Below are positions 10,237 through 42,587 of a DNA stretch of 64,000 bases, one piece after another. Position 1 is the first letter of the stretch. The number at the start of each line of letters is the position of its first letter. The DNA is taken from contig OY969763.1 of the NCBI GenBank assembly GCA_963702845.1, forward strand, positions 2,560,001 to 2,624,000, read 5' to 3'. The notes below the pieces were generated by a model that searched no databases, had not been told where the DNA came from, and saw only the letters and a list, made by a program, of their open reading frames with translations. Source of the stretch: an uncultured Verrucomicrobiae bacterium (GTDB taxonomy: Bacteria > Verrucomicrobiota > Verrucomicrobiia > Limisphaerales > Palsa-1400). The position numbers and the translations under genes are program-made.

Positions 10237-13200
10237 ATGCGAATTTATCGGTTCTTCGTCCGCTCGCTGACGCTTATGCTCAGCGCCGGGCTTCTGTACG
10301 CGCAGGTCAGCACGAAACGTAACGCGTTCAAGGCATACGAGACCTCGTGGCAGAAACAGCTCGAATCGCGTGCCGATCAATCCGACGTCAGCGCCAAAGA
10401 AGCCGATGCCAAAGCGCGTTACGCCCAAGAGCAAATTCTAGAAGCTTCCCGCGAAAAGAGAACTCCTGAAATCGCGCAACGTTTTCTGGAATTACGCGCC
10501 GAGGCCGCTCAAGCGGAAGCAGACGCAGCTCAACTTCGCTCTGACGCGGCCAAGGATCGCGCCGAAGCCGCTAAAGACCGCAGTGATTCCGCCAAAGCCG
10601 CCGCCGACAATCCGGGCGCACATGGCCAGCATAAATATTACGACGCGATCTGGTTGAAACAGGTCCAGCAACGCGCCGAAGATTCTGCAAAGAAGCTCGC
10701 TGAAGAAGCTTCACGAAAAGCCAAAATCGCTACCAACGCAAATCGCGCGGCCCAATCCAGCGCTGAATCGTTAGCCAAGCAGACGATTCGCCAACAGAAA
10801 CCTGCGGTTCCGACAGCCCCGATAGCTGAATCGAAGGAATCTATCGCGGTTCAGCCTGTTAAACCGGCTGTAGCCGTTGTTAAGGTGGCACCGATCGATA
10901 CCCAAAGTGGCGAGCTTGAACAAAGGCGCGCTGAACTCAAAGCCGCGGAAGAACGCATTAAAGCTGAAGAAGCGCGCTTGGCGGAGTTGAAGGCCAAAGA
11001 AGATTTGGAACGCGCTCGCATTGAGGCCGAAACCGCTGAACGTTCGCGCCAAGCCGAAAAGACCGCGGAATTTAAGAAAGCCCAGATTGAAGCAGCGGCG
11101 AAAGAAAAAGCGCGCAAAGAAGAAGATCGCAAACTCGCCATTGAGGAAGCGGCGTCGAAGAAAGAAGCAGAACATCAGGCCGCGTTGAAGGCTAAAGGTG
11201 AAAAAGAAGCCGCCGATCGTCTCGCTGCCGAACAAGCGTCCGCTGAAAAAGCCCGTAAGAAAGCCGACAAGGAATCTGCACGCCAGCAGAAGGAACGCGA
11301 ACTCGCTGACAAGAAAGCTGCTCAAGAACGCGCTATCGCAGAACGTAACGCGCAGGAACAGCAAGCTCACGAAACGAAAGCAAAGGAAGAAGCTGACCGC
11401 AAGGCGCAACTGGCCGAAGATAAACGCGCGAAGGAACTCGAGATCCAAAAAGGCGCCGAAGCCAAAGCTGCCCAAATCGCTGCTGAACGACAGGCAGCCG
11501 AAGAAGCTGCCCGTGCAAAAGCTGAAGCCAAAGCTGCTAGAATTGCCACTCAAAAGCAAAGTGCTGAAGAAGCCGCCCGTTCTAAAGCCCAGGCGGAAGA
11601 AGCCCGTCGTCAAGCCGACAAACTTGCAGCGAAAAAGACACAGGAAGAAAAAGCTTTAATCGTCGCAACCGAAACACGCACCGAACAAGAGCGTCTCGCG
11701 AATTTGGCAAAGGCACAACACGACACCGATCGCAAAGCTGCTGAAGAAAAAGCCAAGCAGGACGAACGTGAGCGCAACGCCCAGCAACTCGCCGCTGAGA
11801 AAAAGGCGAAACAAGAAGCGGAAGCTAACCGCAAAGCCGAAAAGATAGCCGCTGAAAAAGCCCACGCTGAACAGGTCGCTACTGAGAAAGCACGCGTGAA
11901 AGCGGAAAAAGAAGCCGCCCGCCAGGAAAAAACGCGTATCGCTGCGGAGAAAAAAGCCGCTGCTGAAGAAGCCGCGCGGATCAAACAACAAGAAGAGTTG
12001 GCCGCACGCGAAGCCAAGGTGAAGGAAAAAGCGGAGCGTGATGCCGCCCGCGCTGAGAAGGCACAGTCGACAGCCGCTACTACAACAACTACGGACGACA
12101 AAGCGGCGAAAGAACATTTGTTAGTCACCGAACGCCAGCGCGAAGCTGACACTAAAGCTGAACAGGCCCGCGCGAAAGCCGAACAGGAAAAGCAGGCCAA
12201 GGAAGCCCGCCGCCAAGAGTTAGCCGCACAGAAGAAGGCAGCGCAAGAAGCAGAACTTCAAGCGAAGCAGGACAAAGCGGAGAAAGCCCGCATGGCAAAA
12301 TTGGAACAGGAGCGCCAGAAGATTGCCGCATTGGAAGCTGCAAAACAGCGCGAAGTTCAAACTCAACAGAGCGTTGCGTCGGCTCCAAAGAAGACCGACC
12401 AATTGACTGATGCAGACCGCAAGGCGTTACAGCAGGACGAAGCGAACCGTTTAGCTCAGATGCTCGCGCAAAGCCCTCGCCCTGCCCTCGTCACCCAACC
12501 GAAAGCTTCCGTCATTGCGCAACCGAAATCGGCGGCCGTTATTGAACCAGCCGTTGCAGTGAGAACAACCGAAACACCTGCGGTCAAATTAATCCCCGTC
12601 TCCGAAAAAGTCTCTGCGCCGTCGACGGATACCGATTCTCTTCTGCGTGCGCTGCGCAGTAAAGAAGCCGAACTCAAACCATCGGCTCCGCAAGCTCCCG
12701 CTCCGGTAAAACGAACCGAAGCATCTGCGAAACCGGCCAAACCCGCAGCCCCGGTGGTGCAGTCTACAGCAGTGCAGCCCGCTCCGATTGCTCCGGCTGC
12801 CACCACGAAGGAAGAGAAGTTAGCGGACCTGCTCCGGCGCTATCGTGCCGATCAACTCACTCCGAAAGAATATCATGATCAGCGTGCGGCGATAATGGCT
12901 GGTCAGGAGCCAGTCGCACCAGTCACACCTGCAAAGCCGATCAACAAAGTCGATTCACAACAGGAAAAGCAACGCCTCGACGCGATAGCCGAACAGCAAC
13001 GTGTTGCCGCGGCGGAAAGCGCACGAGCCGAAGCCGCACGCAAAGAAGCAGCAGAAATCGCTCGTAAGCAGGCCGCTGAAAAAGCCGAAAAGGAAAAAGC
13101 TGAAGCAATGGCTCGTCAGGCTGAAGAAGCGCACAAAGCTGCTGACGCTCGTGCTCAACAGGAACGCGCTGCCGCAGCCGCGGCAACCGCGACCGCTGCG

Positions 13201-14163
13201 AAAGTTTCGACTCCAGCGCCAATTGTGGCTGTGGCTTCAACGCCAGCTCTTGATTCATCAGGTCAAGGCAAAGAACAAAAACTCGCCGAACTGCTTCGCC
13301 GCTATCGTGCAAACGAAATCACCCCGCGCGAATATCACGAACAGCGTTCCCACGTTCTCGCCGGTGGAGATATTACTCCCGCGGCCCCGATTCAAATCGC
13401 CACACCATTACTGACGCAACCTGCTGTCGCTGCTGACACCCAAAAAGAAGCCGAATCAAAAGCAGCGCAAAAAGCACTCGCCGACGCCCGTCACGCCAAA
13501 GCCGCTCAGGATAAAGCGCAACGTGAAACGGACGCGAAGGCTCGCACTGCGCAAGAACAAGCCGCCCGCCAGGAAGCGGCGCATCAGGCTGCGTTGGCGG
13601 CAAAACAAGCTGAGACTGATCCACTGGTCAGGGCGTTGCGTTCGAAAGAAAAAGAAATTACCGCAAGTTCAGCCCCGGCGCCTTCTGCAGTGGCTCAGCC
13701 AACGTCGACTGATGCTGCTTACGCCAATCGCCTCCTGAAAATGGAAAAAGAGCGCGCCGAAGCCGCTCACAAAGAAGCTGCGCGCGCTCAACAGACTGCT
13801 CGCGTCGAAGCCCCCGCACCAGCGGCGACACCATCAGCGGTGACGGCACATCCTTCGATGGCAACCCCGACATCACTGGACGCAATTCTTCTAGCCGTTC
13901 GCCAGAAACAAACTGAACTACAATCAGGCGGACAAAAATCTGAAGTTACGCCTATCGCAATTACGACACCTACGTCAGCCCCTGCTCCCGTGGCTGCACC
14001 GGCTGAAACGCCGGTAGTGCAAACCGCTACCGCAACCCTCACGCCTCGAACCGGTTTAACAAAGGAACAACGCGTTGCTGAATTGCTGCGTCGTTACAAA
14101 GCTGAAGAAATTTCGGCGCTTGAATACCGTATGGAACGCGCGAAAGTTTTGTCTGAACCGTAA
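10237..14163 (+). CDS. Secreted/periplasmic Ala-Glu-Lys-Arg-rich coiled-coil protein with three SHOCT-like repeats
   Basis: Signal peptide; several hundred residues of TolA-like AEKR coil; three 'KE.KLA.LLRRY.A..I...EY...R' units, the last at the C-terminus. Confidence 0.75.
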   Translation: MRIYRFFVRSLTLMLSAGLLYAQVSTKRNAFKAYETSWQKQLESRADQSDVSAKEADAKARYAQEQILEASREKRTPEIAQRFLELRAEAAQAEADAAQLRSDAAKDRAEAAKDRSDSAKAAADNPGAHGQHKYYDAIWLKQVQQRAEDSAKKLAEEASRKAKIATNANRAAQSSAESLAKQTIRQQKPAVPTAPIAESKESIAVQPVKPAVAVVKVAPIDTQSGELEQRRAELKAAEERIKAEEARLAELKAKEDLERARIEAETAERSRQAEKTAEFKKAQIEAAAKEKARKEEDRKLAIEEAASKKEAEHQAALKAKGEKEAADRLAAEQASAEKARKKADKESARQQKERELADKKAAQERAIAERNAQEQQAHETKAKEEADRKAQLAEDKRAKELEIQKGAEAKAAQIAAERQAAEEAARAKAEAKAARIATQKQSAEEAARSKAQAEEARRQADKLAAKKTQEEKALIVATETRTEQERLANLAKAQHDTDRKAAEEKAKQDERERNAQQLAAEKKAKQEAEANRKAEKIAAEKAHAEQVATEKARVKAEKEAARQEKTRIAAEKKAAAEEAARIKQQEELAAREAKVKEKAERDAARAEKAQSTAATTTTTDDKAAKEHLLVTERQREADTKAEQARAKAEQEKQAKEARRQELAAQKKAAQEAELQAKQDKAEKARMAKLEQERQKIAALEAAKQREVQTQQSVASAPKKTDQLTDADRKALQQDEANRLAQMLAQSPRPALVTQPKASVIAQPKSAAVIEPAVAVRTTETPAVKLIPVSEKVSAPSTDTDSLLRALRSKEAELKPSAPQAPAPVKRTEASAKPAKPAAPVVQSTAVQPAPIAPAATTKEEKLADLLRRYRADQLTPKEYHDQRAAIMAGQEPVAPVTPAKPINKVDSQQEKQRLDAIAEQQRVAAAESARAEAARKEAAEIARKQAAEKAEKEKAEAMARQAEEAHKAADARAQQERAAAAAATATAAKVSTPAPIVAVASTPALDSSGQGKEQKLAELLRRYRANEITPREYHEQRSHVLAGGDITPAAPIQIATPLLTQPAVAADTQKEAESKAAQKALADARHAKAAQDKAQRETDAKARTAQEQAARQEAAHQAALAAKQAETDPLVRALRSKEKEITASSAPAPSAVAQPTSTDAAYANRLLKMEKERAEAAHKEAARAQQTARVEAPAPAATPSAVTAHPSMATPTSLDAILLAVRQKQTELQSGGQKSEVTPIAITTPTSAPAPVAAPAETPVVQTATATLTPRTGLTKEQRVAELLRRYKAEEISALEYRMERAKVLSEP

Positions 14164-14293: not shown

Positions 14294-15604
14294 ATGCACC
14301 ATTTCCAATACCGAAACAACAAACTCCACTGTGAAGGCGTGTCCATTCAATCGCTCGCCGAAAAATTTGGGACTCCGCTTTATATTTATTCCCAAGCCAC
14401 CCTGACCGACCACTATCAAAAACTGGACAAGGCGCTTGCCCCGCTCGACCACATGATTTGCTTCGCCATGAAGGCGAATTCGAATCTCGCCGTCATGCGC
14501 GTTCTCGCAAATCAAGGCAGTGGCTTCGACCTCGTCAGCGGCGGCGAACTTCAACGAGTCATCGCTGCCGGTGGTGATCCGCGTAAATGCGCGTTTGCTG
14601 GCGTCGGCAAAACAGAAGAAGAAATCGAGTTCGCTTTGCGCAAGGGCATCTACACTTTCAATGCTGAAAGCGAACCGGAACTGCTTCGCATCAACAAAGT
14701 CGCCGCGCGCCTAAAGAAAATCGCTCCCGTTGCCGTTCGCGTGAACCCGAACATCGATGCACACACGCACGCCAAGATCACAACCGGCACATACGAAAAT
14801 AAATTTGGCATCCAATTCGAACAGGTCGAAGGCATTTATGCGCGCGCGTCAAAACTGAAGAACCTGCGTTTCCGCGGTCTCCAGATGCACATCGGTTCAC
14901 AGCTCACAAGCGTCAACCCCTACGAGCAAGCCGTTGAAAAAGTGCTGCCAATGGTGAAAAAGCTCGCCGCTAAATATAAATTCGAATTCTTCAGCATCGG
15001 CGGCGGACTGGGAATCATCTATAAGCCCGCGCTCGCGAGCGGACAGGAAGGCTGGTGGAAATCATCCGACAGCAAAAGGACTCCTCACGCCGCGATCCTA
15101 CGCCTAACAAACTGATCCCATTGTTGAAGCCGCTTGGCTTGAAGATACTGATTGAACCCGGCCGTTTCATCGTCGGCAATGCCGGCATTCTCGTCACGCG
15201 CGTCGAATACGTGAAGCGCACTGGCAAAGAAAAACTTTGTCATCGTCGACGCCGCCATGAATGACCTGATCCGCCCCGCATTTTACGATTCCTACCACGA
15301 AATCGTGCCTTTGCAGCAAGGACGCAACGGCGCGAGCAAAACGATTCCATCAGACGTTGTCGGACCGATTTGCGAATCCGGCGATTTCTTCTGCAAAGAT
15401 CGCCCGCTCCCGAAGGTCGACGAAGGCGATTATCTCGCACTGCTGAGCGCCGGTGCCTACGGATTTGTCATGGCGTCTAATTACAACGCGCGCGCGATGG
15501 CCGCCGAAATTCTCGTCAACGGCAAACAAGCTGCCGTCGTTCGCGAACGCCAGAAAGTGAAAGACATCTGGCGCGACGAAAACATTGCCGCCTGGCTAAA
15601 ATAA
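14294..15604 (+). CDS. lysA: Diaminopimelate decarboxylase, split by three apparent +1 insertions (about 15071-15235)
   Basis: FAMKANSN, HIGSQ, IGGGLGI, EPGRFIVG, VGPICESGD, GAYGFVMASNYN. The last fragment (15257) is back in the frame of 14294. Confidence 0.93.
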
Positions 15605-27794: not shown

Positions 27795-29539
27795 TCAGAG
27801 CGAACCCGCAACGACTTTCCCGCCCACCATCGTCATCAACACCTTCGTCGCTCGCACATCATCAACCGGGCAATGCAGAACATCGCGATCAACCATAATC
27901 AAATCTGCATACTTACCCGCCTCAAGCGAACCTTTCTTATCTCCTCGAAATTCAGGTAGCAGTTATTAATCGTATAAAACCGAATCACTTCCTCGCGCGA
28001 TCAGACATTGCTCCGGTTTATCAACACTCCCTCGCTCCGTCTTACGCGTCAGTGCAACCCACATCCCCAGCCACGGATTCCACGGATTGGTGCTCTTAAT
28101 CGAATCGAATTGCACCATGTGATCGCTCCCACCGCCAACCACGATGTGGTGTTTGAACCAGCTCTTCAGCGGGAAAAAATCCTCCATGCGCCGTTCGCCC
28201 AAAACCTTCTTCAACGCGTCACCATCTTTATAAAGCCACGCCGGTTGCACGTCAGCAACCACGCCCAACTTGGCGCATCGGCTGAGGTTCTTCTCATCCG
28301 CAAAATTCGCGTGCGTGACGAGAAACCGCCGCTTCGTGATATCCATCTGCTTGTCGATGTTCTCATAACAATCCAGCAACACATCCATCGCCGCATCACC
28401 AACGCAATGCGCCGTAACCTGCCAACCGCGCCGCGCCACTTCCGCGTAAAACGGATTGAGCAACTCCGGTTTCACAAACAACTGCCCGCGATACTTCGGA
28501 TCAGTGATTTGGTAAATATCCGTCACACCCCATGGCTCGCGCATATACGCCGTGCCGATCAACATCCCGCCATCGAGAAAAATCTTAAACGGCCCGATGC
28601 GCACCCAATCATCACCCAGACCGGTCGGCCCATAAACGCCGTTCGTCGTCTTCGTAAACTCATCCAGTTTCTTGATCGCTTCATCTAAAGTCTTCGGCAA
28701 CGGATCCATCAACCGCGTGCAATTCACCCGCACCGTCAACTCACCCGTCTTTTCCAAATCGCGAAACAAATCGATCGCCGCCGTTTCCGTCCGTCGTTCG
28801 CCGATGCTCGTTATCCCCTGCTCATTGTAGAGATGATGCAAATGTTTGACTGCGTCACGTTGCTCGCTGGCAGTCGGCTGACGAGTCGCCTGAGGATTTT
28901 TCAAAAGCGACGCCGCATTACGCAACACCCCGGTCGGCTCGCCCGTCTTCGCATCCTTCACAATTTCACCGGGTGTCGGATTGGGCGTATCGCGAGTAAT
29001 GTTCGAAACCTCGAGCGCCTTCGAATTCACCACCGCCACCGGTCCCGAATTCCACAGCACCGGATTATTCGATGCCGCCTCATCCAGCTCCGCTTTCGTC
29101 GGCAACCGCATCTCCTTCATCCGCGTCGCATACACGCGCTCCAAGACAATCCAACTCCCCGCCGGCTTTTTCGTTGCCTGGGCACGAATCCACTGTTGCG
29201 CTTCCGCAATTGACTTGATGTAAGGCGCGCCGCCATCCAGCGTGCTCACCGAAGCCTTATACGAATGAACATGGCTATCATACAAGCCCAGGCATCACCG
29301 TCTTGCCGATGCGCATCAACAACGCGCGTTCCCGTCCCTTGGAAATTGGCAATATGTTGATCGTCATCCACCGCGAGAATCTTGTCGCCCTTGATCGCGA
29401 TCGCCTGCGCGACCGAATACTTCTGATCAACCGTAATCACCCGCGCATCTCGAATAATCAAATCAGCAACCTCCGGGGCGGCGTGCGACGGATGGAATAA
29501 CCAGGCAAACAAATAAGAGAACACGAAACAGCATTTCAT
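27795..29539 (-). CDS. Amidohydrolase 3 (YtcJ-like), frameshifted near 29300 and 27990
   Basis: ADLIIRDARVITVD, YDSHVH, KIFLDGG, AHCVGD, THAN, GSDH, and GSLEAGKYADLI in the terminal frame. Confidence 0.88.
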
Positions 29540-29589
29540 GGCACAATCATTGTGCGCAGCAAAAAATCGCTGTGTCAGTAGTTTTTCAA

Positions 29590-30157
29590 CTACGCAAACA
29601 CCAACCCACGCGCCGCGGCGTCCAACTCCTTCCACTGTTCCGCGCGCCAAATCGCCCAACTCAAAGTCGCCCAATTTGCACTCGCATCAGCCGCAATGTC
29701 GGATGCCCGACCGCCGCCGTCATCCTCCGCACCTGCCGGTTTTTCCCTTCCACCAACTCCAATCCAATCCATCGATCCGGCACGCTCTTGCGAAACCGAA
29801 TCGGTGGCTCACGCGGCGGGACATTCGGTTGTGGTTCAACCATCCACGCCCGGCACGGCAATGTCTTGCGACCTTGCACCACCACTCCGCGCGCCAGTTT
29901 CTCCAAAGCGCTTCAGCAGTAGGAATCCCTTCCACTTGGGCCCAATAAATACGCGCATGGGCGCGCTCCGGATCAACAATCGCGTGTTCAACCCCGCTTC
30001 ATCACTCAACAAAAGCAGCCCTTCCGAATCTGCATCCAGCCGCCCGATAGCGATAAACATGCGGTGGAAAACGAAACTCGGCCAATGTTCGATTGGCCGA
30101 GCCGTCTGAAGTAAATTGCGATAAAACGCCGTATGGTTTGTTGAACGCGATGAGCAC
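29590..30157 (-). CDS. Pseudouridine synthase (RsuA/RluE family), several frameshifts
   Basis: VLIAFNKPYGVLSQFT, IGRLDADSEGLLLL, EGKNRQVRRMTAAVGHPTLRLMRV. Confidence 0.88.
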
Positions 30158-33488: not shown

Positions 33489-33665
33489 AACTCCGTTAGG
33501 AGTGCCATGTCTATAGATCGAATGTGTGTCACCATCCCAATTTGTTTTTCGGCGGCGCGGGATTTGCGGCCAAAACAATCCAACGGCTTTCCCCCGCGCC
33601 GCTGAAAAACAAAATCAAATGTGGCTGGGTGTGCCGTTCTATAGATATGTCACTCCTCCGGAGTT
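33489..33665. repeat. ~177-bp palindromic MITE/REPIN-like element, copy 1
   Basis: Terminal IRs AACTCC...GGAGTG.CATGTCTATAGA / TCTATAGATATGTCACTCC...GGAGTT, with an inner IR TTTGTTTTTCGGCGGCGCGGG / CCCGCGCCGCTGAAAAACAAA. Confidence 0.85.
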
Positions 33666-33723
33666 TCGGAACCGTCCAACTTTGCCCCTTGAACGACGCA
33701 CCTTGAGCTGCAACCCTCGTCCC

Positions 33724-34644
33724 GTGAGGCGACGGTCGAAAATTTTGCTCCTGGGCGCGTGTATTCTGATTGCGCTCATTGCCGTCTGCTTCTTCTGCCT
33801 TCGCGATAACGAGCCTTCCTACAATGGACGGACGTTGAGTGCTTGGTTGCGAGTTTATGGCGATGCTTCCGTTCAATCGGAACAAAAGGAGAATTCCAGA
33901 CAATCGGTTATCGCAATTGGTACAAATGCGATACCCGCTTTGTTGAAATGGACGACTTTTGAACAACTTCAACGCGACCGACGGTATTTCGCACTGTGGC
34001 GCAGGCTTCCCCACAGAATATTGAAAAACCATTTCATCATCTCCGTAGCCTTGAGAACCATGGAACATATCGCGATTGCACAAGATGGTTTTTCCATCCT
34101 TGGTACCAACGCTATTCCCGCGATACCGGAACTCAGTCGCCGGTTCTGCAATACCACAAATCGTGAGCAGGCCGATATTGCCGCCATTTCGTTGCAATGC
34201 ATGGGCGAACCTGGTTTTCAATTTTTTACAAATGCGATCGTGGCCGGATGGACGAAGTCTCAAACACTGATGGCCATTGGCGCAATCGGTCCGATGCGTC
34301 ACAGGCTGGGAACGAATGTGTTGTCTGCGGTTCCTTTGCTGATCGCTACTGCAAATACATCTGATGTCGAGATCGCGGACAAAGCAGCAAGCACTCTCGC
34401 CGACCTCGGAGCCTGTGCTGACCAAGTCGTTCCGGTAATTGTCCGGCGGCTTAATTCGACTAATGCTGCGGTACGTTCGCACCTGATTTATTGTCTGTTG
34501 GACTTTGGTGATGCTGCAAAAACAGCAATACCAGCCGTGCGTGTTGCTGCCATTAACGGGGATGATGACGTCCGCCATGCCGCCGAATATTTTCTTTCGC
34601 ACGTCGGGCAGGTGCGAACAAACGTTTCCTCGTCGTATGAATAG
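33724..34644 (+). CDS. Membrane-anchored HEAT-repeat protein
   Basis: N-terminal TM, EPSYNGRTLSAWL, repeated 'IGTNAIP', 'LGTNAIPAIPEL' and 'AKTAIPA'. GTG at 33724 is the first plausible start after the repeat. Confidence 0.8.
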   Translation: MRRRSKILLLGACILIALIAVCFFCLRDNEPSYNGRTLSAWLRVYGDASVQSEQKENSRQSVIAIGTNAIPALLKWTTFEQLQRDRRYFALWRRLPHRILKNHFIISVALRTMEHIAIAQDGFSILGTNAIPAIPELSRRFCNTTNREQADIAAISLQCMGEPGFQFFTNAIVAGWTKSQTLMAIGAIGPMRHRLGTNVLSAVPLLIATANTSDVEIADKAASTLADLGACADQVVPVIVRRLNSTNAAVRSHLIYCLLDFGDAAKTAIPAVRVAAINGDDDVRHAAEYFLSHVGQVRTNVSSSYE

Positions 34645-34689
34645 CTAGATTCCTTCATTCATCTTCATAAAAACTCTTTCTCTTTATTT

Positions 34690-34769
34690 GTCGGAGACGG
34701 ACGTGAGGAGTCTCTAATTTCTCAGCGCTTTGACTCAAAAAGTCAGAGCCTCCTCACGTCGGCTGCTAC
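34690..34769. repeat. REP doublet (family A)
   Basis: GACGTGAGGAG...CTCCTCACGTC inverted pair; the right arm reads GTAGCAGCCGACGTGAGGAGGC on the minus strand. Confidence 0.75.
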
Positions 34770-34790
34770 ATGGTTTTTGTTTCTGTGTTT

Positions 34791-34967
34791 CGTATCGCAG
34801 GCCTCCGAGCCGGTTCGCGGGAGCGAACAGCAAAATAATTTGTTCTAATCTCCCGTATCGCAGGTTTCCAAACCTGCGTGCCGTCGAAATTCGGACGCGC
34901 GTGGATATTTTCACGCGCAGCCGATTTAGAAATCGGCGATACGGCAGGTTTCGAAACCTGCGATACG
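34791..34967. repeat. REP-like array (family B, GTATCGCAGGTTTCNAAACCTGC)
   Basis: Hairpin units at 34854-34877, 34920-34942 and 34944-34967, plus a partial unit at 34791. The array ends 2 bp before the terL stop. Confidence 0.75.
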
Positions 34968-34968
34968 T

Positions 34969-36489
34969 TCAATACCCAATCGTAATTTCCAACGGCGCAG
35001 ATTTCCGTTTCGTCGCATGCAACGCCAGGGCCAACGCCCAGAACCGATCCGCATGCCCGTTCTGCCCACGATCAGCGCTGAACCGCACATTCCCACTCGA
35101 CGTATGCTCCTTGCGGATCGCCCGCAAATCAGTGCGCAACAACCGATCATTCGGAATCCGAATCGTCCGATCCTCAAACGCCATCCGCACCGGGTAAGCC
35201 AATTCTTCCTTCACGGCAGGAGTGAAATGGACACCTTCCACTTTGTATTTGCCGAAGCGTTGTTGGGCGCGTTCGGCAAATTGACGGCCGATGCCGGTCT
35301 GGTCGATGCAACAGCGCTTCACTTGCGGCAACGCGAGCAAGTCGTAGAGGCACTTCTCCTGCGCTTCGAACGACGCCTTCTCCATCACCTCAATTCCACG
35401 CGTGTAATAAACGCTGCCGGCCTTTTCCAAAACGTGGATGACCGTCAGATCGCGAGCACGACCGACGTCCACGCCGACAAACAATTCCGGATCGGTCAGG
35501 TTCGCCGGCATTTCCCAATCTTCACCGCTCGGGTATTCGCACGACCCGATCAGGTCATACGACAAAAACGCGCTCTGCTCATCGCACGGAATGCACATTT
35601 GTTCCTGCAAAAACGTTTCCTCATCCGGCGCCTGGTGCTTGAGATAATCGAAATACTCCGCCTCATCCATCTGCTGGCGCTGATCACTCTCCGCCAACTT
35701 CATCTGCATTCGGTACAACAACCCCTGCTCCAGCGCATCCTGCAGCGTCACCTTGTGGAAGCTGAACCCCTTCGGATTCCCTTTGTGCAGAATCTCATCA
35801 ATCAGCTCCTGGAAATAATTCTGCCCGCCGCGCGCCGTCGAAAATATCTCCATCGTTCCACCCCACGCCAACCCCGGCCCGGCAATCGCAAAAAGCTGTC
35901 GCGGATCCCGATGCAGCGCGAACTCATCCAAAATGCGATCCCCGCGCTTGCCCGCCTGAGCATTTGGCGACGAACTCATCGCATGAATCTTCCGCCCATT
36001 CCGAAACTCCAACACATGCGCCTTCCCTCCCTCCTCATCCACGATCGACGTCCCCAAATACTTCGCCGTGATATTCATCGCCGTCGCAAACGACTTGCAC
36101 TCCTGCACAAAAGCCAACGCTCCCGCCTCATCCCGCGACGCCACCCAGGCATCACAACGCGCGCTCTTCACGCTTTTGCGTCCGACCGTTTCCAACTCCG
36201 TCATCCACGTCCACCCGATCTGCCGCGCCTTAACCGCCAACTTGAACGCCGACCGATCCAACACCCAATTCCGCTGATACGGCAATAAAAGCGCCCCACC
36301 CGGCTTCACCTTCGCCTTGCCGAAAAACGGTCCCTTCAACAAATCCGGATACATTGCATCCAGCCTGACATCCGCGAACGGCTTCAACTCCACCCTATCC
36401 ACAAACCGCTCCACCGTTTCCACCGACACCAACTGCGACGCCAGCAAAGCTGCCTGCGCCGTCACCTTCTGTTTCAAACTCATCTTCAT
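34969..36489 (-). CDS. Phage terminase large subunit, Mu gp28-like
   Basis: Adenine-binding LLPYQ, Walker A KARQIGWT, Walker B RILDEFA, coupling motif FST, nuclease motifs GVDVG, CIDQTGIG and HADRFWALALA. Confidence 0.92.
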   Translation of the reverse strand: MKMSLKQKVTAQAALLASQLVSVETVERFVDRVELKPFADVRLDAMYPDLLKGPFFGKAKVKPGGALLLPYQRNWVLDRSAFKLAVKARQIGWTWMTELETVGRKSVKSARCDAWVASRDEAGALAFVQECKSFATAMNITAKYLGTSIVDEEGGKAHVLEFRNGRKIHAMSSSPNAQAGKRGDRILDEFALHRDPRQLFAIAGPGLAWGGTMEIFSTARGGQNYFQELIDEILHKGNPKGFSFHKVTLQDALEQGLLYRMQMKLAESDQRQQMDEAEYFDYLKHQAPDEETFLQEQMCIPCDEQSAFLSYDLIGSCEYPSGEDWEMPANLTDPELFVGVDVGRARDLTVIHVLEKAGSVYYTRGIEVMEKASFEAQEKCLYDLLALPQVKRCCIDQTGIGRQFAERAQQRFGKYKVEGVHFTPAVKEELAYPVRMAFEDRTIRIPNDRLLRTDLRAIRKEHTSSGNVRFSADRGQNGHADRFWALALALHATKRKSAPLEITIGY

Positions 36490-36506
36490 AATATTTTTTC
36501 CTTTCA

Positions 36507-36528
36507 GTAGCAGCCGACGTCAGGAGGC
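36507..36528 (+). repeat. GTAG-type REP (family A)
   Basis: GTAGCAGCCGACGTCAGGAGGC; 21/22 match to the reverse complement of 34748-34769. Confidence 0.75.
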
Positions 36529-36611
36529 ACCAACCCCCTCACCTCGACCGCCTTTCATTGTTTCGTTTCCATCTGCTCTTCCCTATCTGCCATTCCCGCC
36601 TTTCTTCCATT

Positions 36612-36716
36612 CGATGTTGGACGTTGGAATGCGATCCGGACGTTCCGGTTGGACGTTGGACGTTCGCCTTCCCACTCACCGACTCACCGACTCACCGACT
36701 CACCGACTCACCCACT
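36612..36716. repeat. Short tandem repeats between terS-like and terL
   Basis: GTTGGAC heptamers at about 36616-36665 and (ACTCACCG)x5 at 36674-36713. Confidence 0.85.
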
Positions 36717-36724
36717 TTCGATTC

Positions 36725-37513
36725 TCAGAGCAACCGCATCGCCTTATGAATCTCCGCCAACCCCTCCTCCGAAATCCCCTCCGCCTTCTCCACCGCGCTA
36801 ACCAGCTCCTTCTTCTGTTTCGCCACATGATCGCGATACCGTTGAAACGCCAGTTCCATGCGCTTGCGCCGTCCCCGATCCCGCGCCTGATCACTCGCCG
36901 CCCGCGCAATCCGAAAGAAAACCTCCGGTTTACTCTGGATAAGCGAAGCCAACTTCCCGCTCTGCAAATCCTGCAACGCGTGCAAAATCTGCGTCGCAAT
37001 CAGCAACTCATTAAACCGCTCAAACCCTTCCCTCTGATTTTCGTCGATTTCACCAAGCGCATTAAAAACCCGTCCCAAATCCGCCTGCAATGCCGCAACA
37101 CGTTCCTGTTCCTGCAACCAGTCTTGATGACCTCCGTGGCGCCACCTCGACAAATCCCACTTCTTCAAACCAGAAAACCCCTTCTCCGCAAGCCTCGCTA
37201 AAATCTCCGAATACGTGCGCCCATCCCTCATCTCCGCATTCACCCATTCACGCACCTCAAACGGCAAATTCGCCACCTTCCCCCAGCGTTTATGACCCTT
37301 GAGCACTCCAGCCACCCCGCCGCTCATTGAAGCCGGCCCCTCTGCATCACCACTCGACGCCACGCGACCGCGATCCACGCCGCCTGACGCAGATGACTCC
37401 ACTTGAGGAATTCTTATTCCCAATGCGTGATCTACTCCCCCGAACCGATTGGTAGCTTCGTCAGGCGCACCACCCTCACCACCCATATTTTTGTTATCGT
37501 TATTCAAATTCAT
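36725..37513 (-). CDS. Mu gp27/DUF3486-like protein (putative terminase small subunit)
   Basis: GKVANLPFEVREWVNAEMRDGRTYSEILARL...LSRWRHGGHQDWL, followed by a helical region ending GISEEGLAEIHKAMRLL; lies directly upstream of terL as in Mu-like phages. Confidence 0.7.
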   Translation of the reverse strand: MNLNNDNKNMGGEGGAPDEATNRFGGVDHALGIRIPQVESSASGGVDRGRVASSGDAEGPASMSGGVAGVLKGHKRWGKVANLPFEVREWVNAEMRDGRTYSEILARLAEKGFSGLKKWDLSRWRHGGHQDWLQEQERVAALQADLGRVFNALGEIDENQREGFERFNELLIATQILHALQDLQSGKLASLIQSKPEVFFRIARAASDQARDRGRRKRMELAFQRYRDHVAKQKKELVSAVEKAEGISEEGLAEIHKAMRLL

Positions 37514-37519
37514 GCCAAA

Positions 37520-37548
37520 GTTTTACATATAAAGCTACGACCCGTCAA
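37520..37548 (-). promoter_or_regulatory. Candidate sigma70 promoter giving a leaderless terS-like mRNA
   Basis: Minus strand TTGACG (37548-37543), 17 bp, TAAAAC (37525-37520), 6 bp, then ATG at 37513. Confidence 0.45.
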
Positions 37549-37780
37549 AAACTGTAGGGAAAGGAAGGAAGCCAGGGAAAGGAGGGAAAGAAACAGCACT
37601 TTTATATGACAAAATGTGGCTATTAAGGCACTAAGGCACAAAGATTGCTGAGGCTGTTTTTAACCACGGATCAAACACACGTATCGGAAAAACCAAAGGG
37701 GAACGGAGGACACAGAGCTGATGCAAAGAGTTACTGATAGCTTGATGAAATATCTTGATACCATGAACCAACGCGTTTTG

Positions 37781-37957
37781 AACTCCAGAGGAGTGACATG
37801 TCTATAGATGGATGTACCCCACCGCCCCAATTTGTTTTTCGGCGGCGCGGGATTTACGGCCAAAAACCATTCGAACGGCTTTCCCCCGCGCCGCCGAAAA
37901 ATAAAATTAGATATAGGTGGTCGTGCAGTTCTATAGATATGTCACTCCTATGGAGTT
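37781..37957. repeat. ~177-bp palindromic MITE/REPIN-like element, copy 2
   Basis: Same terminal and inner IRs and same orientation as 33489-33665; both begin gAACTCC and end GGAGTTtcg. Confidence 0.85.
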
Positions 37958-38511
37958 TCGAAGACCCACAGAGGTTGCTGGAAAAGATTCGCTGAAAGCT
38001 TGAGGAAATATGTCAGCTTCACGAAATTGTCGAACGCAATTTCTGGCCTCTCCTCGTGGCTGTAACCGGTCATCTCTTTGGCCAAATCAACCGGAATATT
38101 AAAGATGAAATCAGCGCCCCCCTCTTCCTCTTGCTGCTTGGTTAAGCGCTCGCGAATCGCGGCGAAGACAGCGGGGGGCTGACCCTCAACCTCCAAATGC
38201 CCATCGCCCTCTTGGGCGTCATGAGTGACTGACCAAATCTGCTTGCCGTCTTTCCAGCCGGCTGCACGGCTGACCATAACATGCTCCTCAACAAAGCATG
38301 CGACGACCTCACAACCACGCGACACTTGCCGTGCCTCGTCGTTTGTGAGTTCATGCTGGCCATGGATCACCAGATACCAACCGCTCGGCAACGAGCCTCC
38401 GCAGTATGGTGCCTTGCAATACTCCTTGCCGATATTCTTCAGTCCGAAGTCGTGCAAGACCGCCACCGACGGTTTTCCACGAACTGCAAACCAAGTTAGT
38501 GATGCACCCAT
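37948..38511 (-). CDS. Hypothetical protein, integron cassette gene 2
   Basis: ATG lies 12 bp after the attC R' box; 187-aa ORF whose 3' end runs into the palindromic repeat. Confidence 0.75.
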   Translation of the reverse strand: MGASLTWFAVRGKPSVAVLHDFGLKNIGKEYCKAPYCGGSLPSGWYLVIHGQHELTNDEARQVSRGCEVVACFVEEHVMVSRAAGWKDGKQIWSVTHDAQEGDGHLEVEGQPPAVFAAIRERLTKQQEEEGGADFIFNIPVDLAKEMTGYSHEERPEIAFDNFVKLTYFLKLSANLFQQPLWVFETP

Positions 38512-38516
38512 ACGCG

Positions 38517-39032
38517 TTACGATAGCGAACGTCCCGAATCAGCTACAGCCGCCAGGCCGAGATTTCCGAATTGCCAACGACTGTCACGGCGGCTGTTAGC
38601 TGCATGCGGCTTGTTCGGCAGAGCTGGTTTGAATTGTGTATATATGTTTCTTTGTGGAAATCTTTTCGCAAGCTCCGCTTCCAGATCATGAAATAGCTTT
38701 TCAAAATCTTTAATCGAATCTTGGTAGCAACAGCCGTTTATGGCCAGCGACTCGATGTTCGGGCCTTCCCCCAGACTGATTATGACAAACGTACGCTGCA
38801 GTGCCTGATAGGACATGCCCCGCAATTTGTGCCGGTTATCGTATATGCCTCCGTCTTTTGAAAATGAGCGCTCGGAAAAAAAGCCATCCAACATGGAAAC
38901 GGGTTCTGCATTCGTCTCCCTGATAAGGTCCATGCTTATCAAAAAGGTGGCTTTTGGCACCGTGTTCGATGGGGTCTTCGAGCAGGACGACAAAACGACA
39001 GCTAACAAAAAAAGACTGATATAGAATCTCAT
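38517..39032 (-). CDS. Putative lipoprotein, integron cassette gene 1 (reads through attC)
   Basis: Lipobox VLSSC; visibly more AT-rich than core genes; the C-terminal 'PNKPHAANSRR...AAVADSGRS' is the translated attC. Confidence 0.7.
   Translation of the reverse strand: MRFYISLFLLAVVLSSCSKTPSNTVPKATFLISMDLIRETNAEPVSMLDGFFSERSFSKDGGIYDNRHKLRGMSYQALQRTFVIISLGEGPNIESLAINGCCYQDSIKDFEKLFHDLEAELAKRFPQRNIYTQFKPALPNKPHAANSRRDSRWQFGNLGLAAVADSGRSLS
38524..38619 (-). mobile_element. Integron attC recombination site
   Basis: R'' GCCGAAC, 5 bp, L'' GCATGCAG, stem CTAACAGCCGCC/GGCGGCTGTAG, L' CTGATTC, 5 bp, R' GTTCGCT; two extrahelical bases at the expected positions; 96 bp. Confidence 0.85.
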
Positions 39033-39496: not shown

Positions 39497-39958
39497 ACTG
39501 TCTCCCAATCTACCACCTGAAACCCATTCTCGACGGCCTGTCCAATCAATAATACGCTGGAATTTCCATAGGGGGAAATCAAGGCGCTGCTTTGGGTTGA
39601 CTACACAACATTGACACGCCGTTGCTTCACGTTATAATCCCTTCGGCCGCCGGTCCTTACCGGCATTCGGTGAAGTGCAACCCGGATATGATCTTTGACA
39701 AAAGTTGCAGGATTTCCTGCTCCAAAACCGCTCCACTTTGCAACTAATTGCAGGAAGGAAGCGGAAGTTGCAGGAAGTTGCAACATTCCGATGATATTTT
39801 TTGTGCGGGGCGGATTGGACGAATCCCATTGTGATAGATTAAGGGGAGCGACCGTCCCTAGCTGGAGTTTATGGGCCGCTTCGAAACAGGGCTTTTGTTT
39901 TCGAGTCAACTACGACAATCTCGCTACTTATCCGCTCATCACCTCGGCGGCTACAATT

Positions 39959-40822: not shown

Positions 40823-42461
40823 TCAGTCGATGCTTGGCACTGCTGCGGGCGAGGTCCCCGTCCGCACTCCGGAAACCGTTTCAGTATGCGCGGCTGTCGC
40901 GGCTCTGCTGCCCTTGGTGAAGGACAGCACGAAGATCATCGCGGCGAGCACTAGGTAAGCGGAGGTGAATTGGTATGGCACAAGGCGCGTGGGATCGGTG
41001 AGGTGCCATGGGAAATACATGTTGCCGTCGGGCATGGCCGAATGGATGACGCCGAAGAATGTGAACGCCGCGAGGACGAAACAGTAGATGACGGCTTGTC
41101 GTAACGTGCCGTTGATGAGGCAAGCGATGAGCGCGCCCCAAAGCATGCCGGTCAATATGAAACCGTTGCCGAGCGCGACGATGATTTGCAAATCGGGCAA
41201 ACCTTTTTCCACTTTGACAATCAGGGTGGCGAAGGTCGCGGCAGGCAACCACATGCCTAATTTGATTTGGAGCAGTCGAGCGACAGTTGGGAAAAAAGAG
41301 AACGCAACGGCCGGCGCGTGTTTTGGTGGTGAGGCGAGGAACGCCTGGCAGATGATGTCCAGCGCGACGAAGATCAGAATGGGCGCGAGCACGGCGCGCG
41401 GGATGAGGTCGACGATGAAGCTTAGATAGCCGAGGATTCCGCCAAGACCAACGAAGACTCCAGTGAAAATCGTGTAGCCTATGCGGCTGCCCATCGCTTT
41501 GTACGCCGGTTGGCCGATGTATGGTGTGCTTTGCGCAACGCCACCGAAGACGCCGGCGAGCAACGTCGCGCAGGCTTCGACAAGGAGAATGTCGCGGGTC
41601 TTGTAGTCGTCGCCAGCGACGCGGGCACTTTCGTTGACGTTAACACCGCCGACGACGGTGAGCAGTCCGAACGGAATGGCGATGGGCAAATATTTGAGTG
41701 CCTCGCGAAAACCGTGGACGAAGCCGAGTGTTGGCTGTGGCATTGCGAAATGGAGGTTATCCATTTTCGGATGCGCCATCTCGACACCCCAAATGCCAAA
41801 GTGGCCGAGCGCATAATATATAATGGTGCCGAACCCGACGGCGATGAAGCACGCCGGGCGCATTGCCGGGCAATCGGCGTTGCGCGACGAGGTTGTAGAG
41901 GATGAGGCCGAGTGAAATCATCCCGACAACCGGCAGGCTGAAAATATCCTGCAGCGGCAGGAAGCCGATGAGCGCGAGGCCAATGCCGGCGAGTGAACCG
42001 AGCAGGCCGGCTTGTGGAACGATTTTTTGGACCCAGCCGCCAAAGAACGAGAGCACGAGTTTGAGCGTGCCGATCATGATCATGGTGGCCATGCCGACTT
42101 GCCATGTGAGAATGGCAGCGTCGTGTTCGGCCATGCCGCGTTGTTTCAGCGCGACAAAGCATGGCCCGAGAACCGTGAGCGCGAGACCGATGGTCGATGG
42201 AGTATCGAGCCCAAGCGGCATGGCGGTGACATTGGGGTTGCCGGTGCGCTGGCGCAATTTCACCGCCATCCAGGTGTAACAAAGATTGCCGAACAAAACC
42301 GCCAGCGCGGTGCCGGGCAGCATGCGTTGATAAACGATGTCAGCAGGGAATTGAAAAGCGAAGATGAGAATGCCCGCGAGGAACGACAAAACGGTGACGT
42401 TGTCAAACATCAGGCCGAAGAAGCCGTTGACGTCTCCCGCGGCGAACCATTTTTTGTTCAT
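40823..42461 (-). CDS. NCS2/AzgA-like nucleobase permease, one +1 frameshift near 41848
   Basis: GDVNGFFGLMFDN, TAMPLGLDTPST, NVNESARVAGDDY, TPYIGQPAYKAMG; many TM helices. Confidence 0.85.
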
Positions 42462-42587
42462 GTCGGTTGGAGTTATGACGTGTCGTTTCTTAACACTACG
42501 CGCGCATCGGGTCAATTGACGATTGACGGTGACGCGAGCCGAGGCGTAGTCTCGGAAACGTCCCATAAGTGTAATTAACGACTGTTT

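Follow-up and report, generated by a model that had tools for sequence, protein, structure and literature searches.

The gene transfer agent RcGTA is multilocus (PMC5026251), and its small terminase subunit (TerS) is without the N-terminal DNA-binding domain, which has been linked to non-specific packaging (Sherlock et al., PMC6854486). The head-only gene transfer agent (GTA) remnants of Rickettsiales and Holosporaceae keep capsid and portal genes, have no tails, carry the terminase off the main cluster and show ratios of nonsynonymous to synonymous substitution (dN/dS) below 1 (PMC9254644). The phage-inducible chromosomal islands that form capsids (cf-PICIs) are compact islands with an integrase, a regulator and a primase, which encode head, portal, connector and terminases, have no tail genes and need a borrowed tail (PMC10085698). 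Phage Mu DNA is packaged out of copies that lie in the chromosome, and the first cut falls within host DNA (PMC5557969); lateral transduction by P22 carries more than 300 kb from one site at high frequency (PMC8575938). Here, a gene pair for TerS and the large terminase subunit (TerL) is analyzed, which lies in a 64,000-nt stretch (the window) of the Verrucomicrobiota genome G000 (single contig C1, 6.03 Mb, 89.8% complete). An earlier note, made from the letters of this stretch, had described a stand-alone, intact Mu-like pair and had considered a domesticated module such as part of a dispersed GTA, a satellite-like hijacker, an anti-phage factor or a prophage remnant.

The window pair is probably, though by no wide measure, an accessory, sequence-specific terminase of a dispersed, tail-less, GTA-like head system, which this Verrucomicrobiota lineage (probably Limisphaerales) would have derived from a transposable, Mu-like phage whose head was of the HK97 type. 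By analogy, the system would work like a GTA, with the head-only sets of Rickettsiales/Holosporaceae and the multilocus RcGTA as its nearest counterparts. As in RcGTA, phage-derived head and packaging genes lie at several loci without an integrase and under purifying selection, and the head-associated TerS (in G000 and in two related genomes, G002 and G007) is without the N-terminal DNA-binding domain, which the window TerS keeps. The present system differs from RcGTA in its Mu gp27/gp28-type terminase ancestry, its Verrucomicrobiota host, the lack of tail genes among those found, the many extra DNA-binding TerS and TerL paralogues and a genome-wide amplified element. The Rickettsiales/Holosporaceae sets are RcGTA homologues in reduced endosymbiont genomes and are described with singlet terminases (PMC9254644), as against 8 TerL, 14 TerS and two shared boxes here.

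Compared with cf-PICIs, capsid, portal, connector, TerS and TerL are all present but scattered amid host genes, with no integrase at the window locus or the head module, and no island of integrase, regulator and primase was found in the window or in the scanned surroundings of the head module; the core features of cf-PICIs are missing from the window locus, which speaks against a satellite-like hijacker. The same TerS and TerL families occur in phage Mu and in the Mu-like prophage L237 (L-numbers denote the loci compared). A Mu-like prophage was rejected as an identity for the window pair: the transposase and transposition protein of L237 had no match in G000, and no portal, head or tail genes follow the window TerL. 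MuA, MuB, a Mor/C activator, a gp29 portal and a tail were likewise not found in G000, although the searches with PF09299 (MuA-related) and PF06074 (Mu gp29-type portal) matched no control either. In lateral transduction, in situ headful packaging also starts from a fixed site, and its reach of more than 300 kb (PMC8575938) may be compared with a median spacing of 142 kb for the element copies described below, whose pac role is proposed here; there a whole prophage supplies the machinery, whereas no intact prophage of this family is found here. A search by title or abstract, with most subscription journals and supplements outside it, returned no published description of this system.

The terminase pair and its relatives

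The window pair is a real and conserved feature. Both reading frames are unbroken (Table 1), and TerS lies directly upstream of a Terminase_6 TerL, as expected for a Mu gp27/gp28-like terminase pair. TerL matched Terminase_6C (4e-21) and Terminase_6N in Pfam and the terminase large subunit in PHROG, and a structure search with its model matched T4 gp17 and the TerL of D6E, HK97 and Sf6. All motifs named in the earlier note were found (PYQ70, KARQIGWT87, ILDEFA186, GVDVG339, IDQTG395 and HAD479), which bears out its description of an intact gp27/DUF3486-like gene with a full-length gp28-like TerL. In the alignment, D341, D396 and D481 match acidic positions of the solved G20c nuclease, where these residues serve the nuclease, and they were invariant in 15/15 aligned TerL sequences. 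The C-terminal tails of TerL proteins serve in portal docking; the window tail, PLEITIGY, is common to the G000 paralogues B, D and E and is not present in the TerL of the head module. When the two TerL domains were analyzed in separate trees, the ATPase fell nearer paralogue C and the nuclease nearer B/D/E (support 0.84 and 0.90), which hints at, and does not settle, a two-domain mosaic.

TerS reached 27.9 bits with PF11985, just below the cut-off of 28, and matched phrog_426 at 2e-7. It consists of an unconserved N-terminal extension of ∼70 aa, a helical domain of DNA-binding type (∼aa 83–139) and long helices after it. The domain was superposed on the G20c TerS 4xvn with Z 5.9 and a root-mean-square deviation of 2.1 over 54 residues, a middling score, and in the fold search, which returned mostly generic coiled coils, this small-terminase match was only at rank 8. 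Two kinds of TerS were distinguished in this family. The head-operon TerS begins at the coiled coil, without the N-terminal domain, in G000, G002, G007 and L164, and the one of L162 keeps the domain; the window TerS keeps it, unlike the head-module TerS, and in prophage L237 the TerS can be aligned over almost the entire length.

In a TerL tree of 100 rows, from which G000 paralogue H was left out for coverage, the window TerL fell into a group of 11 chromosomal rows (98%) that contained 0 of the 78 viral rows. In a tree of 368 rows, from which four rows had been dropped as long or duplicate and three loci as duplicates, it belonged to a group of 38 (0.986). Among six loci fetched from this group, four lay amid host genes without tail genes, one was too short to judge, and one was the prophage L237, which carries a transposase, a transposition protein, an HK97 portal, a capsid and a tail terminator. 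This prophage was the nearest phage relative and, in a denser tree, was sister to the rest (90%). Close phage relatives of TerL showed 50–64% identity, while three full-length orthologues were 75–79% identical and the next match 65%. TerL matches were obtained in 20/24 genomes of the same family and 3/16 of other families, some of them real prophages; at E below 1e-60, matches were left in only 9/30 genomes.

For the window TerL and its orthologue fragment in the sister species G001, a dN/dS of 0.10 was estimated over 82 codons with our own NG86 script, at a dS like that of host genes. The head-module genes gave 0.08–0.25 and six host controls 0.04–0.08. Of the findings that the earlier note had named as refuting its reading, neither nearest homologues in complete prophages nor relaxed selection was observed.

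Head module, control elements and sister loci

The pair stands alone in the window, as had been noted, but not in the genome. Eight TerL loci of this family were found in G000 (the window copy, five at 52–60% and two at 23% identity), together with 14 TerS loci; TerS lies directly upstream of seven TerL, six TerS are solo, and all sit amid ordinary genes. The genome-wide search proposed earlier for portal and capsid genes and further DUF3486 genes also revealed a head module at C1:5.240–5.251 Mb, 2.65 Mb from the window pair, with a protease, an HK97 capsid, a connector, a portal, a TerL, gcvH and an inverted operon of small ORFs (open reading frames) and the short TerS. A second HK97 portal follows a TerL at C1:2304495, so that G000 holds in total two HK97-type portals, one capsid, one protease and one connector. 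The portal partners of this terminase family are of the HK97 type (PF04860) and not the Mu gp29 type named in the earlier note. The gene gcvH adjoins the module TerL in G000 and in its sister species of the same genus, G001 and G002. Two small head-module ORFs had no PHROG match; the label 'holin-like' for such ORFs is our assumption.

No tail gene was found in G000 when it was queried with 3265 ORFs taken from 87 loci of phages or prophages and with another 3753 from further loci; among phage-type genes, only head and terminase matches were seen in this screen, which listed matches from at least 2 or 3 loci. Searches for tape-measure and sheath proteins in G000 were empty while controls matched. 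G000 is 89.8% complete, and these searches could pass over divergent tails. No integrase, regulator or primase was found in the window or in the scanned surroundings of the head module.

The 120 bases upstream of the window TerS have 33 copies in the genome (E 1e-13 to 1e-24) and 0 in the reversed genome; with a stricter pattern, 8 of the 33 were recovered, along with at least one copy in G001 and at least three in G002. This class-1 element precedes all three operons of the head module (protease-capsid, connector-portal-TerL and small-membrane-ORF-TerS), 4/13 full-type TerS genes including that of the window, and a primase/helicase-like gene. As many as 30/33 copies are oriented into the next large gene. 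A sigma-70 scan of 34600–38000 returned 0 sites, which indicates that the −10 of the window element is not canonical. Nine copies have a common 250-nt leader (79–90% identity), with a whole TerS kept in one only, and within the genus the element repeats differ from species to species.

A second, palindromic box (class-2, core GGACA-N5-TGTCC) precedes five other gp27-like TerS, recA, an imuB-like gene, a DNA ligase and WYL regulators, as well as solo pairs of a second terminase family (27 G000 sites were used, e.g., L069 with recA, L059, L055 and L060); 18 copies were found in G002, recA included, and 17 in G022. From these targets, a DNA-damage regulon may be inferred. The box could not be equated with the published Verrucomicrobia LexA motif, and the WYL genes under it are equally likely regulators.

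In two further genera, head or terminase genes also follow repeated motifs. G003 has its own, unrelated motif in 22 copies, which precedes a protease, a small-membrane-ORF operon and three solo TerS, and G007 a third motif in two copies, before its two head operons. Only 1/17 of the G003 target genes has a class-1 element in G000, so that no conserved host regulon is involved. The numbers of motif copies and of solo or extra TerS were 33 and 13 in G000, 22 and 3 in G003, and 2 and 0 in G007, the minimal state with one TerS and one TerL match; relative to it, G000 has 13 added TerS loci, the window TerS among them.

The window locus was compared with the sister species on three unlinked contigs, not in one continuous alignment. 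On one G001 contig, a class-1 element that diverges from a peptidase M28 gene leads to an ORF that is truncated where the contig stops; another G001 contig carries the end of the TerL orthologue (93%) together with HEAT genes and a portal that shares 78% identity with the second portal of G000, with the TerL end facing the HEAT genes as in the window. The G002 contig holds btpA and a HEAT gene along with a fragment from the C-terminal end of that portal, and the flanking host genes are collinear in both species. With a portal or portal fragment at the apparently same locus in the sisters, portal loss in G000 looks secondary. The ancestral order may have been promoter-TerS-TerL-HEAT-portal, with the G000 unit inverted between two ∼170-nt palindromes (two of four genome copies) and the portal now elsewhere. 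Contigs from four DNA runs gave short pieces, some near-identical inside TerL, and none across either junction.

Readings of the dispersed system

Starting from an intact pair that is under selection and has its element in common with the head operons, the following steps are proposed for an accessory terminase. The class-1 element would switch on the window pair together with the head module. Proheads would come from the module, and a portal would be provided in trans, for which the second portal is the likeliest candidate. The module TerS, with its DNA-binding domain lost, would package host DNA without sequence preference, as in RcGTA, whereas the window TerS, with the domain kept, would let headful packaging of the chromosome also begin directly at specific sequences, perhaps preferably at the repeats of the dispersed element. 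Delivery would proceed via a borrowed tail or an unrecognised route. The tail-less module, the common element, purifying selection and the chromosomal clade support the earlier suggestion of a domesticated module or dispersed GTA, although no part for delivery was found.

A more far-reaching, tentative reading is two-tier packaging, in which a GTA-like head with a non-specific TerS is combined with integrase-free cassettes, each with its own DNA-binding TerS, that seed tens of pac-like sites. By plugging into the late promoter or the DNA-damage regulon, the cassettes would determine which genomic regions get packaged and passed on. If true, this would amount to programmable or self-driving transduction without a prophage. 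The dispersed system as such points to a Verrucomicrobiota group with a GTA-like lineage that descends from a Mu-type phage and in which, as a second case independent of RcGTA, the DNA-binding domain of TerS was lost. With it, one can also test how domesticated packaging machinery selects host DNA, at random or by site. The coverage of particle DNA is predicted to be either flat or to start at the 33 mapped elements, and the TerS or activator of each species should prefer its own repeat.

Several findings weigh against an accessory terminase of a working head system. Without a tail gene found, infectious particles are unexplained, and an HK97 capsid match was present in only 13/24 same-family genomes. 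Mor and Ogr are late activators, and none of the Mor and Ogr/Delta types scored over the cut-off in three genomes. The estimate of selection on the window TerL covers 82 codons only, and the B/D/E lineage and TerS are under weaker constraint (dN/dS 0.29–0.42, with 0.29–0.41 for B/D/E). In the denser tree, for which the careful search was incomplete, the chromosomal group had a support of only 83. The portal at the G002 locus equivalent to the window is a fragment. The solo copies are mostly at different places in the sister species, and the remaining 25/33 class-1 copies lie before short stubs or unrelated genes of the host; both look more like selfish than adaptive behaviour. In G000, the TerL of the head module has a TAG that is absent in G002, and the TerL paralogues H and J are frameshifted; as 4/47 host genes tested are likewise split in G000, the TAG and the frameshifts may be assembly errors.

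That the promoter-TerS(-TerL) units live as minimal parasites, without an integrase, on the host head system is doubtful, yet it fits the amplification and the shifting positions of the copies. Each DNA-binding TerS would steer packaging to its own site, over-transferring the site and its neighbours, and the stubs would be remains. Element copies do rise with solo TerS over the three genomes counted above, positions differ between species and the repeats are species-specific; the lone whole TerS among the nine copies with a leader and the single G003 target with an element in G000 point the same way, and Mu-type packaging, which makes its first cut beyond the element in host DNA (PMC5557969), would take along the site plus a short flank. 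However, the unit has no mobility enzyme, the window locus is apparently common to three species, the orientation of nearly all copies into the next gene is promoter-like, and the five TerS whose box likewise stands before recA and imuB are tied to host control. The two explanations, parasitic cassettes and accessory terminases, are compatible.

Defence, debris and misassembly fit less well than either. An anti-phage role, as decoys or dominant-negative terminases against the packaging of Mu-like phages or by cutting DNA in infected cells, is unlikely: the diversity of the paralogues (52–60% identity), the existence of close phage relatives, the retained nuclease residues and the immunity-type genes SUKH-4 and Imm42 near some terminase copies are in line with it, but PADLOC matched 0/5 local proteins, an intact ATPase and nuclease are both unneeded in a decoy, and an element in common with the capsid, protease and portal operons points to assembly; no positive evidence was obtained for the anti-phage factor suggested earlier. 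Repeated insertions of a transposable phage that decayed to terminase genes appear improbable to the same degree. Although such an ancestor inserts widely, some copies are broken or stubs and the G002 portal is truncated, the same two genes survive each time without an early, transposition or tail gene, dN/dS is 0.10 at a host-like dS, three full-length orthologues exist, and the copies group together and not with phages. An assembly artefact that removed adjacent phage genes is very improbable. The incompleteness of G000, its frameshift-type errors and the lack of a contig over either junction would allow for one, but the TerL end faces HEAT genes in G001 as well, the flanking genes are collinear in both sister species, and the pattern recurs at six other G000 loci and in other genomes.

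Other features of the window and genome

Table 1. Coordinates of the terminase pair, its control element and adjoining features in the window.
Feature	Coordinates	Strand	Basis or remark
TerL (Mu gp28-like large terminase), 506 aa	34969..36489	−	Pfam, PHROG, fold, motifs; ATPase and RNase H-like nuclease motifs intact
8-nt tandem repeat between TerS and TerL	36671..36716		sequence repeat
TerS (gp27/DUF3486-like small terminase), 262 aa	36725..37513	−	PF11985, phrog_426
Class-1 element, whole	37527..37650	−	upstream of the window TerS; putative promoter and pac roles
Class-1 TTGACG, −35-like hexamer	37543–37548	−	interval of the earlier note ends here, at 37548
Class-1 four TTCC(C/T)T repeats, 9-nt spacing	37556–37588	−	element part
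Class-1 A-tract	37594–37605	−	element part
Class-1 upstream box	37634–37649	−	element part
∼170-nt palindromic repeat, left copy, bounding the HEAT-TerL-TerS-promoter unit	33498..33668		four loci in genome
HEAT-repeat gene, convergent on TerL	33526..34644	+	Pfam
REP-like palindromes right after the TerL stop codon	34690..34967		10–26 BLAST matches in genome
∼170-nt palindromic repeat, right copy, 85% identical	37781..37960		candidate end point of the putative inversion relative to G001

Pfam scans of the window ORFs (9 + 42) confirmed that no portal, capsid, tail, integrase or transposase gene is present in the 64 kb, and no tRNA was found in the window. TerL ends, as had been described, in an array of hairpins at ∼34690–34967, which we take to be repetitive extragenic palindromic (REP) sequences; Rfam gave chance hairpin matches only. 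The gene beyond them is convergent, as stated, but cannot be regarded as a plain host gene, since relatives of this HEAT family adjoin TerL or portal genes in G001, G002, L161 and at G000 locus D.

Upstream of the class-1 element, two small cassette-like genes lie at 37948–39032, with a palindrome near 38520–38620 that was seen by eye and is presumably attC-like. An intergenic repeat of ∼200 nt at ∼39600–39800 has many genome copies at 75–95% identity. At 10276–14163, an ORF of 1295 aa shows a strong A skew and is without a Pfam match at 1e-6. Genes for an amidohydrolase, a pseudouridine synthase, a decarboxylase and a permease (27966–30060, 14294–15604 and 40823–42566) are apparently split by frameshifts, consistent with assembly indel errors.

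Around the class-1 copies, a sigma-54-like box was seen on the opposite strand ∼100 nt upstream of the 3′ end of the element in 26/33 copies (0.005 expected per window); it was not called a promoter, a divergent gene being present at only 14/33 copies. At stub sites (L073, L400–L420 and others), several ORFs continue in frame into a gene of the host; thiG, for example, has a long extension at its N terminus. The primase/helicase-like gene (DnaB-N + AAA_25; L014:3499–4983, G000:C1:5225498–5226982) follows a class-1 element directly, at a distance of 13 kb from the head module, and could amplify DNA for packaging.

Solo TerS-TerL pairs of a second, unrelated family were found at L061:697–3030 and L072:76–2258 (G000:C1 2.814 Mb and 6.003 Mb), and relatives sit in elements at 1.71 and 4.30 Mb of G000. 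The former element (L034–L035, C1 1.706–1.741 Mb) carries repressor, helicase, primase, terminase, DUF4055 portal-like and gp13-like capsid genes, with a cassette-filled gap after TerL, and has a partial sibling (L067) at 4.295–4.305 Mb. In other genera and families (G004, G015, G020, G010, G027 and G033), lone capsid or protease-capsid genes lie amid host genes (L344, L347, L349, L343, L346, L348, L350 and L351).

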